The position numbers and the translations under genes are program-made. A stretch of DNA of 56,232 nt from Elusimicrobia bacterium RIFOXYD2_FULL_34_15. Lineage in GTDB: Bacteria; Elusimicrobiota; UBA8919. Location of the stretch: positions 1 to 56,232 of the forward strand of contig MGVS01000039.1 of NCBI GenBank assembly GCA_001800605.1, in the 5' to 3' direction. Numbering within the stretch: the first letter of the stretch is position 1; the number at the start of each line of letters is the position of its first letter. Under the pieces are notes generated by a model. That model did not search any database and was not told where the DNA came from. It was given only the letters and a program-made list of their open reading frames with translations. Shown one piece after another: positions 815 through 47,804 of the stretch.

Positions 815-3121
815 TTATTCACCAGCTACCTTCACCGGTAACTTTACAACAAATGTTGTACCTTTACCTACCTCGCTTTCCACTTCTATTGTCCCATTAT
901 GTTTCTTTATTATTTCATAACATATACTCAGTCCTAAACCAGTTCCTTTTCCTACCTCTTTTGTAGTATAAAACGGCTCAAAGACATGTTTCTTTACTTC
1001 TTCTGACATTCCCACACCTGTATCTGATATTGAAATTATAATATATTTTTTATCTGCGTTTATCCCTGCCTGCCGGCAGGCAGGTGCGTTTAAATCAGCG
1101 TCAATCTGCGATGTCGTTATCGTTATCGTTCCGCCTTCTGGCATCGCATCCATTGCATTATTACATAGATTCACTATCACTTGCTCTATCTGATTCTTAT
1201 TTATCTCTATCTGAGGTAAATCCGGAACATACCGTTTAATAATTTCAATATTTTTAATTTTTGCATGAGCTTCTACTAACGATATTGTATCATCAATCAA
1301 CACATTGATATCTGCTTTATCCTTTACCTTATCATCTATTCTGGAAAACGTTAATAAATTACTCACTAATTTTTTACATCTTATTGCTTCCCGCTCTATT
1401 GACTTCAATGGTATATATAACGAATCCCCTTCTTTCACCATTTTAACTACACTTTGGGCAAATCCTAATATTACCCCCATCGGATTGTTTATTTCATGTG
1501 CCACCCCACCTGCTAACTGTCCTACCGCTGCCATCTTCTCGGATTGTAGTAATTGTGCTTGAAGTTTTTCTTTCTCTTTCTCCATATTTTTCCGCTCGGT
1601 TATGTCACTAAATATTGCAGCAAATTTATTATCAGAATATTTATAAGCAAAAACTTCAAACCATTTATCTAAACTTTTAACGCGATTTTCTATATGCACC
1701 GGATTTCCCGTTTGAACAACTTCCGCATACTTATCAATCCAAAACTGTTCTATGCTCGGAATAATTTCACGAATAGTATGATTCATCGCCATATCACAGC
1801 GTATTCCTGTATTATTTTCCCAAGATTGGTTAACACTTAAATAACGGAAATCTATTGGCTTGTTTTGTTCATCCCAAATCATCTCGCAAAGTGCAAATCC
1901 TTCATTCATTTTATCGAATAACATACGATAATGCTTCTCACTCTGTTTCAATGCATATTCAGCATACTTCTGCTCGGTTACGTTTTTTATAATAGATCTC
2001 GTTCTGACAAAGTTTCCTACACTATCATATATTGCTGAAGAGTTTATTATTACATCCAATTTTTCTCCATTTTTTTTGATCATTTTCCCATTTTCAACAA
2101 ATAGTATTCCTTCATGTCTTAATTTTTCAAAACCTTTTTTGACGTTGTCCCATGTTTCAGGAGCATATATTTCTTTTATATATTTTCCATCGAGTTCTTC
2201 CCTTGAATAACCAAGAATTTCACATTCCTTTCGATTTGCAAAAACAATATGACCATCAATATTAACAGAATGAATCATATCCGAAGCATTTTCAACTATA
2301 TCTTGATACCGCTTTTCAACATCTATTAATCTTTTTTCTAATACTTTTGTTGATTCTATAAATTTTTCTCTCATTTCCCAATTGAAAATTTTAAGCATTC
2401 TAATTATGACCCAACTAACAATTACAGCACAAATAGCACGAAAAAACTGAACAGGGATATGTATAACCTCAAAAAATAAATCCATATTAAACCAGTCGGC
2501 AGGAAAAAAATTTGCTTTTGGAACTACCAATCCCCCTAAAAATCCATAAACTAAAAACGATAAACTCGCTAAAATAAAATATCTCTTTACTTTTAATGAT
2601 TTCAACATTATCTCGTTACATTTATAATACGAAGAAAAACCAAATGTTATAAGTATGCACCCGGTAAAACCTAAAAAATATCTTACCAATATATTCCCAA
2701 TTTTTAAAAAATCTGCAGACATAAATGCAAAGATAAAAATAAAAATTAAAATTATAAGTAATAACCACCTCGTTAAGACACTAGCTATTCTTTTGTGAAA
2801 TGAATTTCTATCTTTCCCTAAACTAAAAAGTTGTCTTCCAAACTCAAACAACAAACAATAAGAAATAACCAATATAAACCATCGAAATATATCAAAAAAG
2901 GTATTACTTTTTTTAATTATTGACCACATATCTAAAAATTCACTCAATCCGTGGGTTATACCAAATATAGCCAATAACCAAAGTATATCCGCAATCCTAA
3001 ATTCACTTTCTTTTTTAGGTTGAATTAAAATAGCAATTCCCATTACTACAAATGCAAAACCATAGACAAAAAATACAATATCCAGATTGTTTTGAAACCA
3101 CTGTTGAATTATATCCATCAT
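815..3121 (-). CDS. Membrane PAS-PAS sensor histidine kinase
   Basis: N-terminal TM helices, two PAS-like domains, H-box AHEINNP, N-box NLCNNAMDAM, G-boxes DTGVGM/GTGLGL. Confidence 0.95.
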   Translation of the reverse strand: MMDIIQQWFQNNLDIVFFVYGFAFVVMGIAILIQPKKESEFRIADILWLLAIFGITHGLSEFLDMWSIIKKSNTFFDIFRWFILVISYCLLFEFGRQLFSLGKDRNSFHKRIASVLTRWLLLIILIFIFIFAFMSADFLKIGNILVRYFLGFTGCILITFGFSSYYKCNEIMLKSLKVKRYFILASLSFLVYGFLGGLVVPKANFFPADWFNMDLFFEVIHIPVQFFRAICAVIVSWVIIRMLKIFNWEMREKFIESTKVLEKRLIDVEKRYQDIVENASDMIHSVNIDGHIVFANRKECEILGYSREELDGKYIKEIYAPETWDNVKKGFEKLRHEGILFVENGKMIKKNGEKLDVIINSSAIYDSVGNFVRTRSIIKNVTEQKYAEYALKQSEKHYRMLFDKMNEGFALCEMIWDEQNKPIDFRYLSVNQSWENNTGIRCDMAMNHTIREIIPSIEQFWIDKYAEVVQTGNPVHIENRVKSLDKWFEVFAYKYSDNKFAAIFSDITERKNMEKEKEKLQAQLLQSEKMAAVGQLAGGVAHEINNPMGVILGFAQSVVKMVKEGDSLYIPLKSIEREAIRCKKLVSNLLTFSRIDDKVKDKADINVLIDDTISLVEAHAKIKNIEIIKRYVPDLPQIEINKNQIEQVIVNLCNNAMDAMPEGGTITITTSQIDADLNAPACRQAGINADKKYIIISISDTGVGMSEEVKKHVFEPFYTTKEVGKGTGLGLSICYEIIKKHNGTIEVESEVGKGTTFVVKLPVKVAGE
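1052..1110. repeat. ATCTGCGT tandem array with inserted perfect 20-nt palindrome CCTGCCTGCCGGCAGGCAGG (1065-1084), inside the kinase CDS
   Basis: Same palindrome at 19514-19533 and (one mismatch) 47768-47787; encodes PACRQAG. Confidence 0.9.
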
Positions 3122-3883: not shown

Positions 3884-3936
3884 GGGGAAATATTAAAAGC
3901 AGGGTTAGGGATTAGGATTACAGATTACAAAATCTT

Positions 3937-5775
3937 TCAATCTTCTAATTTGAGTACGGCGAGAAATGCTTCTTGCGGGATGGAAACGTTGCCAAATTGT
4001 TTCATTTTCTTCTTTCCTTCTTTCTGCCTTTCAAGAAGTTTACGTTTGCGGGAAATATCACCGCCGTAACATTTTGCGATGACATCCTTTCTTAATGCAC
4101 GGACATTTTCACGGGCTATTATCCTGCCCCCGATAGATGCCTGAATAGGAATTTCAAACATCTGGCGCGGGATCAGGCCTCTCAATTTATCCACTATTTT
4201 TCTTCCGTAATATTCTGCATTGTTTTTAAATACTACAAATGATAAAGCATCCACCGGTTCATTGTTCACAAGGATGTCCAGTTTAACTAAATCGGATTCT
4301 TTATAATCGCAAATTTCATAATCAAATGAGGCATAGCCGGAAGAAACTGATTTTAAATTATCATAAAAATCTACTATAGAATCGGCCAACGGCATTTCAT
4401 ATGAAAGTTTTACCTTGTCCTCTGTGATGTATGTCATATCCAGAAAATCTCCGCGCTTGCCTTCACAGAGAGCCATTACATTGCCTACATATTGAGCAGG
4501 AAGTACAATGGTTGCTAATATATACGGCTCGTAAATTTTTTCTATGTATTGTTTTTCAGGGAATTTTGACGGATTTTCTATTTCTATAATTGCGTCTTCG
4601 CCTTTTAAACCTGTAACCGGTTTACTTCCATCTATGCATTTAATTCTGTATCTTACGTTCGGAGCGGTTATGATAAGATTTAGGCCAAATTCTCTTTGTA
4701 AACGTTCTTTGACAATGTCCATATGCAGCAGGCCTAAAAATCCGCACCTATAACCGAAACCAAGTGCAACTGATGTTTCCGGCTGATAAAAAAATGCCGA
4801 ATCTTCAAGATGTAATTTTCCTATTGCCTTTGTAAGAGCATCATAATCTCCGGGTTGAACGGGATACAAACCGCAAAAAACAAACGGTTTTAATTCCTTG
4901 TATCCGGGGTGGGCTGTCTTTGCAGGATTCTCGACATCGGAAATTGTGTCTCCGATTTTTATCTTATGAATATCCTTTATACCGAGAATTACATAGCCGA
5001 CTTCACCCGCAGAAAGTTTTTCTATTTTGTGCCTGCCTGCGGGTGCAGACGGATTTTTTATTTCAAAAAAACCGACTTCTTCAACATCGAATTTTTCCCC
5101 GGATGAAAAGAAAAATACTTTTTGACCGGCCGATATCATTCCGTCAAAAACTCTTATATAAACTATTACTCCCCTGAAGGAATCGTAGAGAGAATCAAAA
5201 GCTAAAGCTTTTAACGGTTTTTCTGCTTCACCGACAGGAGCGGGTATTTTATTTATTATTGCATCAATTATTTCTTTCGTACCTATATTTTGTTTCGCAG
5301 AAACAAGTATCGGCTTTTCATCTATTTTTAAAATTATTTCTATCTGCTGCTGGGTCTTCGGCACGTCTGCCTGTTTCAAATCAATCTTGTTTATTACCGA
5401 AATTATTTTTAGATTATGTTGTCTTGCAAGGTCAAAATTTGAAAGCGTCTGGGCTTCAACACCCTGCGAAGCATCCACAAGCAAAAGACAACCCTCGCAT
5501 GCAGCAAGAGCTCTGGAAACTTCATAAGTAAAATCCACATGACCGGGTGTATCAATAAGATTTAGTTGATATTTTTCACCATCCGGTTTAGTATAGTTTA
5601 AACGGACAGTTTTTGCCTTAATCGTTATGCCACGTTCTCTTTCAAGGTCCATTGCATCCAAAACCTGTTCGTGATGTGTAGTTGTAATTGCAGAGGTAAA
5701 CTCTAAAAGCCGGTCCGCAAGCGTGGATTTACCGTGGTCAATGTGTGCAATAATAGAAAAATTACGGATTTTCAT
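3937..5775 (-). CDS. lepA: Translation elongation factor 4
   Basis: MKIRNFSIIAHIDHGKSTLADR, DTPGHVDF, CYGGDISRKRKLLE; start reset to ATG 5775. Confidence 0.98.
   Translation of the reverse strand: MKIRNFSIIAHIDHGKSTLADRLLEFTSAITTTHHEQVLDAMDLERERGITIKAKTVRLNYTKPDGEKYQLNLIDTPGHVDFTYEVSRALAACEGCLLLVDASQGVEAQTLSNFDLARQHNLKIISVINKIDLKQADVPKTQQQIEIILKIDEKPILVSAKQNIGTKEIIDAIINKIPAPVGEAEKPLKALAFDSLYDSFRGVIVYIRVFDGMISAGQKVFFFSSGEKFDVEEVGFFEIKNPSAPAGRHKIEKLSAGEVGYVILGIKDIHKIKIGDTISDVENPAKTAHPGYKELKPFVFCGLYPVQPGDYDALTKAIGKLHLEDSAFFYQPETSVALGFGYRCGFLGLLHMDIVKERLQREFGLNLIITAPNVRYRIKCIDGSKPVTGLKGEDAIIEIENPSKFPEKQYIEKIYEPYILATIVLPAQYVGNVMALCEGKRGDFLDMTYITEDKVKLSYEMPLADSIVDFYDNLKSVSSGYASFDYEICDYKESDLVKLDILVNNEPVDALSFVVFKNNAEYYGRKIVDKLRGLIPRQMFEIPIQASIGGRIIARENVRALRKDVIAKCYGGDISRKRKLLERQKEGKKKMKQFGNVSIPQEAFLAVLKLED
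5032..5052. repeat. 21-nt CCTG-footed hairpin inserted in frame in lepA
   Basis: CCTGCCTGCGGGTGCAGACGG, related to the 20-nt palindrome family; encodes PSAPAGR. Confidence 0.8.
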
Positions 5776-5792
5776 AAAATTAAAGATGGTGT

Positions 5793-5960
5793 ATGATTGC
5801 GGGATAGCGTGATAGAAAATAAGGCAAAAAATGAAAAAGTAGAAAGGAAAATAAAAATTCACAGCTAACCTTTCCACCTCTCTACCTTTTACCTTTCTAT
5901 CTTTCCACCTGCTTTATACAATGCACAATCGCACAATCGTGCTATCGCACTAACTCACAA
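5793..5960. repeat. Nested inverted 8-mer tandem arrays
   Basis: Outer GATWGYGB / GCACAATC arms, inner AGAAAGG / ACCTTTCY arms. Confidence 0.65.
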
Positions 5961-19504: not shown

Positions 19505-19656
19505 GATTACACACCTGCCTGCCGGCAGGCAGGGATTTAGAAAACCGATTACACAGACTTTTAAAAGCAATTTAAGATTTAACGAAGAGCCTTAATCTGT
19601 GTAATCTTGCCTTTTATCTGTGTAATCAGTGATTGTTTGGATTTTTAAACAATCAC
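19505..19656. repeat. GATTACACAGAT-family element with inserted 20-nt palindrome (19514-19533)
   Basis: Removing the palindrome restores GATTACACA|GATTT; terminal hairpin GTGATTGTTT/AAACAATCAC. Confidence 0.88.
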
Positions 19657-24958: not shown

Positions 24959-27900
24959 CTACCTAATTACAGCTATTTTCCTTAAAACCCTTATCGTCTT
25001 CTCGCCTGTCTTGTGTGCCTTTATTATATATAAATAAACGCCAGATGCAATGTCATTTATATCCCAAGTGTATTCGTAGGCGTATTTATTATTCTTTATA
25101 ATTGGCAATGAAAATATTTCATTTTTATGCAATAATTCACCTGCTATGTTGTATATTTGTATCTCCAAACTATCAGCTATTCCACACTCAGCATGAATAA
25201 TTGGCTGATAACCATTTTTAGCCGGGTTTGGATATGCATACACCTCACCCTTAACAAATGCTGCCGACGGTGCTTGTTTTAATGCTCCAAGTAATATTGG
25301 CTTTTCTTTGTAGTTTACACCTATTATCTTGCTTTGGCCGTTTATGTCAATGCTTTTTGCTATTACGTTACTTAATGTTATTCCTTGTCCGTTTATTGAT
25401 ATATCGCTGTATGGAGCATATATTATTCCTTTTAGTTCTCCCTGCCCGCTTATCTGTATCGGTTGTGTAGTGTTACAATAAATCATTAACTTGTATGGGT
25501 TCCCATTATAATGTACTTCACTTTGTCCTGATATCTGTATTTTGCCTATGCATAATATTTGTATTTCGCCGGTTAGATTAAGTTTTGCTTGTCCTGATAG
25601 ATCTATTCCTGATAAATAATATGTTCCTGTTGATATTGTTAGTGTGTCCTGCCCTGATAGTGTTAATATTCCATTTATAAGTGCTTTTTTGCCTTTGCTG
25701 GTTAATGGTATTTTGTCGTTGTCGTTTGTTTGTGATATTTTTACCTGCATTGTGTCCAAGTCTATAATATATGGACTCATTGGTTCTGTATTTTGTGTTA
25801 TTGTCCCAGTTATTTTGCTTTGGCCAATTAATGTTATTTTTTGTCCTTCCGCATTACCGTCTATTAATGCTTGTCCTGATAGTTTTATTTGTTTGTTGCT
25901 TCTTACATCCCCGTATATTTTACCTTGGCCGTTTATTGTTATTCCTTCAATTCCAAGTGCTGCATATTCAGTTAGTTGCGTTACCGTAAATACTGCTGAT
26001 TTTAATGTTTCTACGTTTGAAACATTATCAATACTCCGGTAAGTTACTGTGTGAGTACCTTCGGAGACAAGGTAAATGGGTAAAGAGGTAGAAAGGTAGA
26101 CAGTGTATGTACTATTATCTATTGAATAATATGTTTCTTTCACACCGGATGCTATACCGTTAACTAACGGATCAATAGTATTAAAAAATATTGGGGTGTC
26201 TGGTGTTATGTAGGTTTCTGTTGTGTTTATAGTAGTGATTGGCGGAGTTGCGTCTACATTTAGAGTTATAGAGTTATAGGGTTCAGCATTATTGAGATTA
26301 TCCTCTGCATAGTATTTTATTGTATGGATACCTTCTGATAGAGTAAATGAAGATGTATAATTTATGAACTCTGAACTATCAACTCTGAACTTAATATCTT
26401 TTAGTCCTGAAAATACTCCATTGATTATTGAATCTTCTGCACTTATTATTATTTCCGTCTCTGAATTTATATATGTTTTGTCGCCAATCTGAAATCCCGA
26501 TGAGTCGGGACAAGTTCCGCAATTTGAAATTTGTAATTCCGATTCCGGCGGAGTATTATCTAATTTTATTGTTACTGTTCTTTCCGGTTCGGTGTTTTCC
26601 ACGTTATCTTGCGAGTAATAATTCATTAAATATATTCCATCTATGCCAGTTATGTTGAATGTGGTGATATATTGGGTATATGCTGGAATATTATCGGTAC
26701 TGGTATATATGGTGTATTTTGTTTCTTTTATACCTGACGGTATTGTGCCAGTACTTGCTTGCCCTGAGCCTGTCGAAGGGTCTATGGTTACCAATTTAAA
26801 TATTGAGTTTGAGGTTATGTATTCATTAAACTTTGGATCAGAGATTGATAAAAACGTTTCGGGAACGCTGTTGTCAATTGTTATTGTTAATGATTTTTCT
26901 GCCTCTTGATTTAGTAGGTTATCATAACTTCTGTAATATATAGTATGCTCGCCGTCAGACAGATTAGAAAGATAAATGGTAGACAGGTAAATAGAATACG
27001 GACTATCATCTATCTTATATTCTGTGTATTTTACACCAAGTCCTATTCCATCCCCAACTTCTATTAAATCATCTATCGCCGATAATTCTATTTGCGACTC
27101 CGACGTTATATATGTCTTGCCATTAATTTGAAATTTGTAATCTGCAATCTGCAATTGACTCACCGGCGGTTTTGTATCCCAAACTACTTCAAATTTTGCC
27201 GTAGTAGATGAACTGTAATTACCGATTGCATCTGTAGCTTCAACTGTCAATGTATAAATTCCATAGGATGGTAAATTAAGAGGCTCTATCTGAACATCCG
27301 TACTCACTATTACTTTAGTACCGATTTTTGATGTATCAGGACATTCTATCAACGTTAAATAACCGGTTGTTACAAACCGTGACAAATCAGTTACATTGAA
27401 ATCAACATATATTTTATTTAAAGTTGCTATAAATCTTTCTCCGCCTTCAGGTGAATTTATTGTAATTACCGGTGATTCATTATCGGTAATTGCTAATATG
27501 CCTATCCTACTTGAAGATTCGTATCTGCTGTCTCCGTCAAATCGCACTCTTAAATAGTATGATAATCTTACCGGTCTTTCAGGAAGTGAAAATTCAAATG
27601 TCACACTGCTTTTTACAAGTGTGCTTTGTGTTATTGTTTGCCAACTGTCATTATTCCAATATTCAAGCACAACCGTTTTTGGTTCATCTTCCTGGTGCAA
27701 TAATTCTAAATTTTCATCATCTGTCATTGTTACTATCAATGTTGTTGTTCCCGGATACAAAATAGTTGCGTTAGGTTTAGATAATATAACTTTTTCTTTT
27801 ACTATTTTTAATGTTTCCTGCACTTGACTGGGTAAATAATAATATCCATCACCGGGAAATTCTATCTTTATAGGATATTCACCGGGCAGTAAATCAATGC

Positions 27901-45153: not shown

Positions 45154-46168
45154 AAAGCTTTTTTACAGCTCCAAATACTTCATCAACAGTAACTTTGTTC
45201 ATACAATTAAAATGATTTCTTGGACATTTATTTGACCCATGCCTGTCGCATGGCCGGCACTTGATATCCTTTTCTATTACAACCGCTTTATCCGAATACG
45301 GGAAAAATCCGAATCTTTTTACTGTAGGACCAAAAATTGCAACAGTCGGTATATCCAATGCAGCGGCAATATGCATCGACCCGGAATCATTTGTAATAAA
45401 AACTCTGCATCTTTTTATCAACGCTGTTAGCTGTTTAAGCGTTGTCTTGCCGGCAAGATTAATCGGGTGTTTCTTCATATTTTTTTCAACTATTGATGCT
45501 GTATCAATATCATCGACACCGCCAAAAATTATTATTTTTCCGCCAAATTTATCTACAATTTTATCCGATAATTCTGCATATCTTTCCGGAAGCCATCTTT
45601 TGGTCGCCCAAACACTTCCCGGATTTATCCCAAAATATCTGCCCTGAGCGACCTGTCCTGAGCTTGTCGAAGGATCTAAAGTTGAGTCTGCATACTCATC
45701 GGATTTTTTATCAATATATATTTTTGTCTTTTCTTTTTCTAATTCAAAACCGAAATATTGCATTAAATCCAAATATCTTTCAAGTTGACATTTATCTTTA
45801 TCAAAAGGTATGCACTTAGTTAAAAAAAACCTACCCGCACTATTACAAAACCCTACTCTCTTTTTTATTCCGGATAAATAGGCTAAAAAGCCAGATTGGA
45901 AAGAAGGGTGTGGAATTAAAACCGTATCATATTTTTTTTCCCTTATTTTTTTTGCTAATTTAAATAAATTAAAAATCCCCCTGTCTTTACCTTTTTTATC
46001 ATAAACAATAATTTCATCAATATCCGGGTGCCCTACAAGAATATCTTTTGTCGAAGGAATGCATAATACAGATACTTCAGACTTTAAATATTTTTTTGCT
46101 GCCTGAATTAAAGGAATCGTTAAGACAACATCTCCTAAAAAAGCCGTCTGAATAATCAGTATTTTCAC
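45131..46168 (-). CDS. waaF: LPS heptosyltransferase II (GT9)
   Basis: QTAFLGDVVL, NPGSVWATKRW, NDSGSMHIAAAL, IFGPT; likely GTG start 46168. Confidence 0.82.
   Translation of the reverse strand: MKILIIQTAFLGDVVLTIPLIQAAKKYLKSEVSVLCIPSTKDILVGHPDIDEIIVYDKKGKDRGIFNLFKLAKKIREKKYDTVLIPHPSFQSGFLAYLSGIKKRVGFCNSAGRFFLTKCIPFDKDKCQLERYLDLMQYFGFELEKEKTKIYIDKKSDEYADSTLDPSTSSGQVAQGRYFGINPGSVWATKRWLPERYAELSDKIVDKFGGKIIIFGGVDDIDTASIVEKNMKKHPINLAGKTTLKQLTALIKRCRVFITNDSGSMHIAAALDIPTVAIFGPTVKRFGFFPYSDKAVVIEKDIKCRPCDRHGSNKCPRNHFNCMNKVTVDEVFGAVKKLYEYFEYN
45639..45674. repeat. CCTGAGC...TCGAAGG-family element inside waaF
   Basis: CTGCCCTGAGCGA-CCTGTCCTGAGCTTGTCGAAGGA; encodes PSTSSGQVAQG. Confidence 0.8.
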
Positions 46169-47624: not shown

Positions 47625-47804
47625 GATTACACGGATTTCTAACATCGATTACACCGATTAAAACCTAAACCTTCTAATAGAATCTGCCCGTCCTCCGCAG
47701 TAGCAGTGCTACTGCTACGGAGGATGGATGTAATATGCATTCTAATCTGCGTAATCAGTGATTGTTACCTGCCTGCCGGTAGGCAGGGTTTTTTTAACAA
47801 TCAC
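47625..47804. repeat. GATTACACAGAT-family element with two inserted hairpins
   Basis: 42-nt hairpin 47687-47728 splits AATCTG|TGTAAT; 20-nt palindrome 47768-47787 sits in the terminal hairpin. Confidence 0.88.

Follow-up and report, generated by a model that had tools for sequence, protein, structure and literature searches.

The window analysed here, a stretch of 56,232 nucleotides (nt) of contig MGVS01000039.1 from Elusimicrobia bacterium RIFOXYD2_FULL_34_15, carries on its minus strand lepA, the gene for elongation factor 4 (EF4 or LepA; 3937..5775). Seven codons of this gene, at 5032..5052 (-), add the residues PSAPAGR (242-248) to the protein. We conclude that these 21 nt are very probably a true in-frame insertion, which was fixed once in the ancestor of a family of groundwater Elusimicrobia and has been held by purifying selection on N-P-S-A-P-A-G-R. 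An earlier reading of the window, made from the letters of the DNA (below, the sequence-only reading), had described the stretch as an exact GC-rich hairpin and had proposed that frame-preserving mini-elements are writing peptides into core proteins in this genome. The mini-element interpretation names a kind of event that does occur in the clade but misdates the one in lepA; functionally and taxonomically, the LepA insert is a conserved signature insertion.

The lepA gene and its seven-codon insertion

The open reading frame (ORF) of lepA translates into 612 amino acids (aa) from MKIRNF. The product matches the Pfam families PF00009 GTP_EFTU, PF03144 GTP_EFTU_D2 (residues 202-278), PF14492 EFG_III, PF00679 EFG_C and PF06421 LepA_C, and the LepA entry 2YWE of the PDB matches it across residues 2-611 (E 2.3e-216); the Pfam and PDB searches thus give the five-domain LepA/EF4 architecture. 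Ortholog alignment delimits the insertion to within about one codon, NPSAPAG being the alternative. It reads CCTGCCTGCGGGTGCAGACGG on the plus strand and CCG TCT GCA CCC GCA GGC AGG on the coding strand. Its G+C content is 16/21 against 34% for the window, which agrees with the GC-rich stretch inside an AT-rich gene that the sequence-only reading had seen. The hairpin that had been called exact is imperfect: folded alone, the insert has a stem of 8 pairs that includes a G-U and a single bulged A and is closed by a 4-nt loop, at -9.9 kcal/mol (z -2.39; 4 of 200 shuffles equal it).

When the insert is removed, LepA becomes colinear with solved LepA sequences, and the sequences on either side, EEVGFF and LSAGEVGY, are conserved. 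Relative to the proteins of E. coli (3CB4) and Aquifex (2YWE) the net gap amounts to 7 aa, so that the claimed addition of seven residues is genuine, and the E. coli segment given in the sequence-only reading proved correct in the alignment to 3CB4. Against Thermus (5IMQ/4W2E), however, the net gap is 6 aa, and the figure of seven does not hold there. Loop length at this site varies among bacteria, with Thermus and three Clostridia clusters differing by 1 aa.

Age and distribution of the insertion

The genome under study (G000, genus g1) belongs to a family represented by 11 species genomes in 6 genera. lepA was found in all 31 related genomes, and 23 of the 30 fetched LepA loci were aligned. 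The seven others (L013, L018 and L026-L030), whose ORF was missed by the motif filter, all lie outside the family, and their match lengths, where listed, fit the short, insert-free form. The insert stands at the same position of LepA in 11/11 family genomes, and exactly these seven residues are absent in 12/12 aligned outgroups. The sister family, the only other family in the order, has LepA without the insert. In a survey of the order (12 genomes) with a 96-aa query around the insert, the 11 family genomes showed no net gap over the matched part; match lengths were 288 nt for 96 aa in the family, 282 nt for 94 aa in its member G002, and 267 nt in the sister family. In the phylum, the 96-aa query found a match in 385 of 401 genomes, and among the 150 of 386 matches listed only the 11 family rows had no net gap over the matched part of the query, those of the others that were inspected being 6-7 aa shorter.

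A collection of 5.8 billion proteins holds the pattern N-P-[SAD]-[ASI]-P-A-[GA]-R in 17 clusters, of which 11 have exactly NPSAPAGR. In these clusters N241, P242, P245, A246 and R248 are invariant and residues 243, 244 and 247 vary, 247 being G in 15 of the 17 (G or A overall). Every named insert-bearing cluster is Elusimicrobia, and 18 other LepA hits in the collection, including the closest ones at 598-600 aa, are without the insert. The same length and position throughout the clade, the absence outside it and the conserved flanks are the pattern of a conserved signature insertion, that is, of a clade marker.

Since the insert is common to all 11 family genomes and to 17 protein clusters, it is neither an assembly artefact nor a product of events in this genome. 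The literal form of the sequence-only reading, in which an active frame-preserving mini-element recently inserted into this very lepA, could appeal to a 9-nt half-site that the insert has in common with a repeat family, and to the local hairpin of G000, whose stability exceeds that of 97.5% of the synonymous encodings. Yet the identical place and peptide in all 11 species and 17 clusters, together with a 21-mer that is single-copy and 5 edits away from the repeat consensus, leave it almost no probability. A recent mobile insertion into the lepA of this genome is refuted by the ortholog alignment, and with it the claim that the peptide was written here.

Selection on the peptide and the status of the hairpin

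Across the 11 family orthologs the codons of the insert differ synonymously; the final Arg, for example, is encoded by AGG, CGT, CGG, AGA or CGA. In lepA, four-fold sites approach saturation even when the two species of genus g1 are compared (identity 40% vs about 26% by chance). At third positions the insert shows an identity of 0.373, compared with 0.466 over the whole gene; of 221 windows, 87% reach or exceed the value of the insert. The wobble pair of the stem is kept in 5 of the 11 orthologs by our own count. Measured against random synonymous encodings of its own peptide, the hairpin stands out in three orthologs (G000, P=0.025; G005, 0/400; G003, 0.05) and is ordinary or worse in the remaining eight. 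Of the pair of findings that would have told against the sequence-only reading, a shared insertion and DNA that is not palindromic, the first is thus present throughout the family; as to the second, the DNA of 8/11 orthologs folds no better than random synonymous encodings, with 3/11 standing out.

The synonymous scatter of codons, the ordinary third positions and the ordinary folds in 8/11 orthologs indicate that selection acts on the peptide and not on the DNA. A conserved DNA hairpin was rejected on the synonymous nulls and the third-position identity. PSAPAGR does code for unusually foldable DNA, as only 4 of 1500 random 7-mers from the proteome encode as much structure. Still, 18% of its 1260 permutations encode hairpins at least as stable, on which ground the idea that the hairpin is a relic written in the order of the peptide was also rejected. 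The present-day DNA hairpin arises largely because Pro, Ala, Gly, Arg and Ser have GC-rich codons, and it is not maintained as a nucleic-acid structure.

A larger fold deserves separate mention. The insert and a partner downstream form a 60-nt mRNA or DNA hairpin (4996..5055, -) that is strong only in G000, where it reaches -25.8 kcal/mol (z -4.48) and exceeds the local fold of the insert. The insert and the LSAGEVG codons are complementary there at 16/21 positions (P=0.004 vs synonymous recoding), including 5 of 7 third positions. These values speak for a functional nucleic-acid element in lepA, such as a translational pause, a site for an RNase or regulator, or a DNA-level signal. The fold is not conserved, however: it falls to -11.5 kcal/mol in the same-genus ortholog, and 10 of the 11 orthologs lie at the synonymous expectation. 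Third positions are without excess conservation, and an Rfam scan of 3900-5900 found no family at the insert site, so that neither mark of a structured RNA family is present. The sole hit in that interval was AsrC at 5701-5785 (+), sub-threshold at 26 bits vs a gathering score of 111 and taken as noise. We therefore regard such a functional element as highly improbable. The excess complementarity of the arms in G000 alone could mean that the arms are still being homogenised, or it could be a chance result in one of 11 orthologs.

Position and possible role of the loop in EF4

The insert lies within EF-Tu domain 2 (PF03144, residues 202-278). Domain II of translational GTPases faces the shoulder of the 30S subunit. 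An AlphaFold model of LepA computed from 21 sequences (mean pLDDT 67) places the insert in a loop, residues 239-246 (pLDDT <50), between strands 228-238 and 247-251. On this model the insert is very probably the tip of a beta-hairpin of domain II, an EF-Tu-type beta-barrel; the excerpted text of PMC5207388 describes domain II as the shared beta-barrel. The 21 nt thus add a 7-aa loop in frame at a surface site of domain II and leave the fold intact, as Rickettsia palindromic elements (RPEs) do.

The insert is more conserved than its neighbours, which are E/Q-I-K/Q before it and H/S/K/Q-K/M after it, and this better conservation argues for a function. The peptide would act as a rigid Pro/Gly turn that ends in the invariant Arg on the surface of domain II, and in the modelled position the loop presumably makes a contact important to the EF4 of this family, for example with the 30S shoulder. 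Weighing against this assignment of a role, the model as a whole is only moderate in confidence and the loop itself is a low-confidence part of it.

A family-restricted mini-palindrome

The first 9 bases of the insert, CCTGCCTGC, equal the half-site of a genuine repeat family in the genome. Its palindrome CCTGCCTRCCGGYAGGCAGG has 52 copies with at most 1 mismatch in G000 and 2, 23, 5, 24 and 8 copies in five other genomes of the family. It is therefore present in 6 of the 11 family genomes, with zero copies in the other five and in 20/20 genomes outside the family; the reversed pattern, used as a control, gave zero in every genome. The family of GC-rich mini-palindromes that the sequence-only reading had surmised thus exists, and it is confined to the same taxonomic family as the LepA insert. 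G000 holds 85 half-sites and 10 perfect 20-nt palindromes, and a 21-nt form with one extra C·G pair accounts for 18 of 28 exact copies. In frame, the 20/21-nt palindrome CCCTGCCTGCCGGCAGGCAGG reads PCLPAGR.

Most copies lie outside long genes. Among 67 copies with at most 2 substitutions, the longest spanning ORF is shorter than 150 aa for 58; of the other nine, six are at the upstream edge of a longer ORF, two are undetermined and one is clearly internal. Three copies fall in the window. The perfect 20-nt palindrome CCTGCCTGCCGGCAGGCAGG at 1065..1084 (-), found by scan and homologue comparison, is read in frame as PACRQAG in a histidine kinase ORF (815..3121). Two more came from the palindrome scan (no strand assigned): a perfect 20-nt palindrome at 19514..19533 stands at the upstream edge of an ORF and is probably non-coding, and a copy of the CCGGTAGG variant at 47768..47787 has a longest spanning ORF of 100 aa.

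A 20-40-nt GC-rich palindrome in many copies, mostly extragenic, is what defines repeats of the REP (repetitive extragenic palindrome) type, and the CCTGCC palindromes, as distinct from the lepA insert, have these properties. The palindrome consensus contains no GTAG or CGTC head. Five genes for Y1 transposases (PF01797) were found in G000, on contigs C64, C38, C1, C87 and C68. No CCTGCC palindrome or comparable GC-rich hairpin with an 8-bp stem lies within 900 nt of any of them, and one unrelated hairpin occurs inside one of the genes; a REPtron, in which the palindromes flank a Y1 transposase, was not found. Further short GC-rich palindrome families were noticed in G000, namely CCGCCAGCTGGCGG (7 copies), GCCGACCAAGGTCGGC (5), GGGCGAGACCTCGCCC (5) and GGTCGCCGCGGCGACC with variants.

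Other in-frame hairpin insertions in the clade

Judging from sequence comparison, in-frame hairpin insertions do occur in the family, both in the histidine kinase and in a second loop of LepA in relatives. The kinase (815..3121, -; 768 aa) carries the 14-aa (42-nt) insertion LNAPACRQAGINAD in the context ...IDAD-LNAPACRQAGINAD-KKYII..., just before the G1 box of the ATP-binding domain, with the direct repeats TAAACGCA and GC(T/A)GAT on the flanks. Its closest homologue (G002, 75% identity) is without those 14 aa, and kinase paralogues hold different inserts in the same loop. Two paralogous kinases (L033 of G001, and G000 contig C118 at about 63750-64367) have a 19-aa insert, SP(A/T)F(A/T)SATTPLAD(N/K)K(A/V)T(E/D)GK, after the G2 region, which resembles another translated GC-rich repeat; the kinase paralogue L041 of G002 shows a repeat-like insert in the ATP-lid loop.

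The second lineage-variable loop of LepA, CIDGSKPVTGLKGEDA (residues 380-395; 4591..4638, -), was recognised in the ortholog alignment and is expanded throughout the order. Hairpins in this loop were seen at loci L006, L009 and L010. The LepA of G005 has an extra 27-nt hairpin with a 7-bp stem that codes for PPAKGLVAG, is absent in two congeners and is single-copy in the genome; its flanks match it at only 13/27, and a template-switch source for it was rejected. The LepA of G009 has a perfect 26-nt palindrome coding for GRAPLRVLY, with 3 copies in G009 and 1 in G010, and that of G007 has a CCCCGAT...ATCGGGG hairpin. The proposal that frame-preserving mini-elements write peptides into proteins here is thus upheld for the kinase and for the second LepA loop of relatives, and fails for the lepA insert, which is ancient.

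The proteome, taken as 2003 stop-to-stop ORFs no shorter than 150 aa, was also scanned for short peptides. PACRQAG was found once (in the kinase), PAGRQ twice, PSTGSG once, PSTSSG twice and CPDSSG once, so the peptides that the sequence-only reading had named do occur; these counts leave the question of lepA undecided. LPAGR occurs 3 times and PAGR 10 times vs 3.5 expected; three of the ten PAGR matches are element copies at the ends of ORFs, two upstream and one near the C-terminal end. Three further GC-rich in-frame islands of the window encode peptides of this set. A 1633-aa ORF (-) has two, PSTGSG at 26762-26779 and CPDSSG at 26495-26512, the latter with a hairpin of -15.8 kcal/mol. A 352-aa ORF has PSTSSG at 45656-45673 (-), and PSTSSGQV recurs in a 4360-aa ORF on contig C59.

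Origin of the lepA insert

The source of the insert was probably palindromic DNA. Two such sources come into question, and we slightly favour, at somewhat less than even confidence and on sequence resemblance, the family mini-palindrome CCCTGCCTGCCGGCAGGCAGG over a local inverted duplication. The mini-palindrome would have landed in frame as P-C-L-P-A-G-R and, after two replacements, would have been exapted as PSAPAGR. PCLPAGR and PSAPAGR are identical at 5 of 7 residues, and the two that differ, 243 and 244, are among the three positions that vary within the family (the third is 247). Between the element and the codon profile of PSAPAGR, 11.7/20 positions match, a value that only 5 of 1260 permutations reach. 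The slight edge given to the mini-palindrome follows from the smaller number of replacements, from their location at still-variable positions, and from the fact that dispersed palindromes enter the LepA of relatives.

Several observations weigh against this origin. The 21-mer is unique: a Hamming scan found no other site in the 2.47-Mb genome within 4 mismatches, and 5 edits separate it from the consensus of the local palindrome. The half-site 9-mer GCAGGCAGG is found only in genus g1 and has a 1.6% chance of arising given AGR and the codon usage of G000; with four-fold sites saturated as well, it is unsupportable as an ancestral relic. Five of the 11 family genomes have the LepA insert and zero copies of the element. 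In its sole clearly recent insertion into a coding sequence, the element came as 42 nt with repeats on the flanks and not as a bare 21 nt. Because the genome has several palindrome families, the value of 5/1260 needs a discount for multiple testing, and the rival source downstream scores slightly better (2/1260). Finally, the two sources differ at four constrained positions, and between them the insert splits 2-2 by our own count.

The rival source is the segment ACTTTCTGCGGGTGAAGTCGG at 4997..5017 (-), inside the K-LSAGEVG codons, whose reverse complement equals the insert at 16/21 positions. In a short-range template switch during replication in the family ancestor, these 21 nt, 14 nt downstream of the insert, would have been copied as their reverse complement into the place of the hairpin loop. 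The product would have been a 21+21 inverted repeat that initially read approximately P-T-S-P-A-E-S and was later reshaped to PSAPAGR. The match is 16/21 in G000 and 10-14/21 in the other orthologs, and no more than five sites in the genome, among them 4997-5017 at a distance of 35 nt, come within 5 mismatches of the insert. When every register up to 75 nt on both sides was considered, the codon profile of the 11 orthologs matched at 12.5/21, a value that only 2 of 1260 permutations (PSAPAGR itself included) and 1 of 400 random proteome 7-mers attain; the best direct-repeat match was ordinary (77/1260). The mechanism is documented, as described in the consulted parts of PMC5453318, PMC8794818 and PMC8604942. 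However, a template switch requires four amino-acid replacements, including residues 247 (G in 15/17 clusters) and 248 (invariant), and leaves 3 of 7 residues identical to the hypothetical original vs 5 of 7 for the mini-palindrome. The complementarity of 10-14/21 in 10 of the 11 orthologs is no better than synonymous recoding of both peptides, and the young, unique hairpin insert in the LepA of G005 is not a copy of its flanks (13/27). The signal is confounded, too, as the downstream segment and the mobile palindrome are alike at 11/21 positions by our own count; this mutual likeness and the 2-2 split make the two sources inseparable. We consider a template switch somewhat unlikely, if nearly equal to the mini-palindrome as a candidate.

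An ordinary loop insertion by slippage or repair, with a source that is unknowable and with both resemblances coincidental and found after the fact, seems to us unlikely to a similar or slightly greater degree. Where Pro, Ala, Gly, Ser and Arg predominate in a surface turn, its codons are bound to be GC-rich and self-complementary, a view that accords with the 18% of 1260 permutations encoding equally stable hairpins. No nucleotide memory is expected with synonymous sites saturated, both source tests were devised once the similarity was known, and loop length varies by 1 aa among bacteria (Thermus, three Clostridia clusters). What speaks against mere coincidence is that the permutation tests, which control for composition and register, give 2/1260 and 5/1260, and that the proteome has few 7-mers built solely from residues with GC-rich codons (4 of 1500 random 7-mers encode as much structure).

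Returning to the mini-palindrome, the fullest reading of the data is also more tentative than the assignment of the source. In it, a selfish 21-nt GC-rich mini-palindrome would have inserted in frame into the beta-hairpin of domain II of EF4 in the family ancestor and then been domesticated, with the five residues P..PAGR frozen across six genera, and the same family may keep feeding hairpins into the second LepA loop and into other proteins.

Comparison with known systems

Signature indels of this kind have been catalogued in many proteins, LepA among them: a 3-aa LepA insert is specific to the "Tuberculosis" clade of mycobacteria and serves as a clade marker, according to the text consulted of PMC6306742. 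The insert described here is like conserved signature indels in its fixed length, conserved flanks, clade-wide presence, absence outside and location in a surface loop. It differs from the mycobacterial indel, as portrayed in that portion of PMC6306742, in position and clade, and it is unlike catalogued signature indels in that the inserted peptide itself is strongly conserved and that there is statistical evidence on the source DNA.

RPEs are about 100-150 bp long, encode conserved peptides of about 50 aa and are multi-copy, with 44 insertions in R. conorii (PMC10969869, in the section consulted). The likeness lies in palindromic selfish DNA that can be translated in frame at structurally tolerant sites of housekeeping proteins, here in the histidine kinase and the second LepA loop. 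The lepA insert is different: at 21 nt it is far from the RPE length, it is single-copy and ancient, and it is selected as protein. Nor is it a recognisable copy of a dispersed repeat, having no site within 4 mismatches and lying 5 edits from the local one.

REPs and REPINs are 20-40-bp repetitive extragenic palindromes with a GTAG or CGTC head, as characterised in the passages used of PMC3733652. The CCTGCCTGCCGGCAGGCAGG repeat is similar in size, in being GC-rich and palindromic, and in being mostly extragenic (58 of 67 copies only in ORFs <150 aa). It differs in having neither a GTAG/CGTC head nor an adjacent RAYT gene, and some of its copies are translated.

Template-switch mutations create hairpins and alter coding sequences (PMC5453318, PMC8794818, PMC8604942, in the parts consulted). 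The lepA insert is similar in resembling the reverse complement of DNA a few bases away, which would give an instant hairpin. The cases described in those parts are mostly young and near-perfect, whereas the match in lepA is only 10-16/21 and the event is inferable only statistically. A limited literature search found no paper on the LepA insert or on coding palindromes in Elusimicrobia.

Significance for the family

The LepA insert gives one family of uncultivated groundwater Elusimicrobiota a clean seven-residue marker, and the protein that carries it is found in nearly all bacteria. The insert is also a corrective to the tempting view that any GC-rich hairpin within an AT-rich gene has to come from recent mobile DNA, since selection at the peptide level on Pro, Ala, Gly and Arg codons can preserve a hairpin-like DNA signature indefinitely.

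An origin of the insert in palindromic DNA is plausible. If either of the two proposed sources is the true one, the insert would be a dated case of palindromic DNA that a core translation factor has exapted as a conserved loop, and it would bear on how repeats or template switching make new protein loops. Were the domesticated mini-palindrome to prove true, it would be far smaller than any described coding palindromic element, and it would be a dated fossil of the way in which hairpin repeats become selected parts of core proteins. As young in-frame hairpin insertions occur in the same gene and the same family, this clade is a good one in which to study the creation of protein loops.

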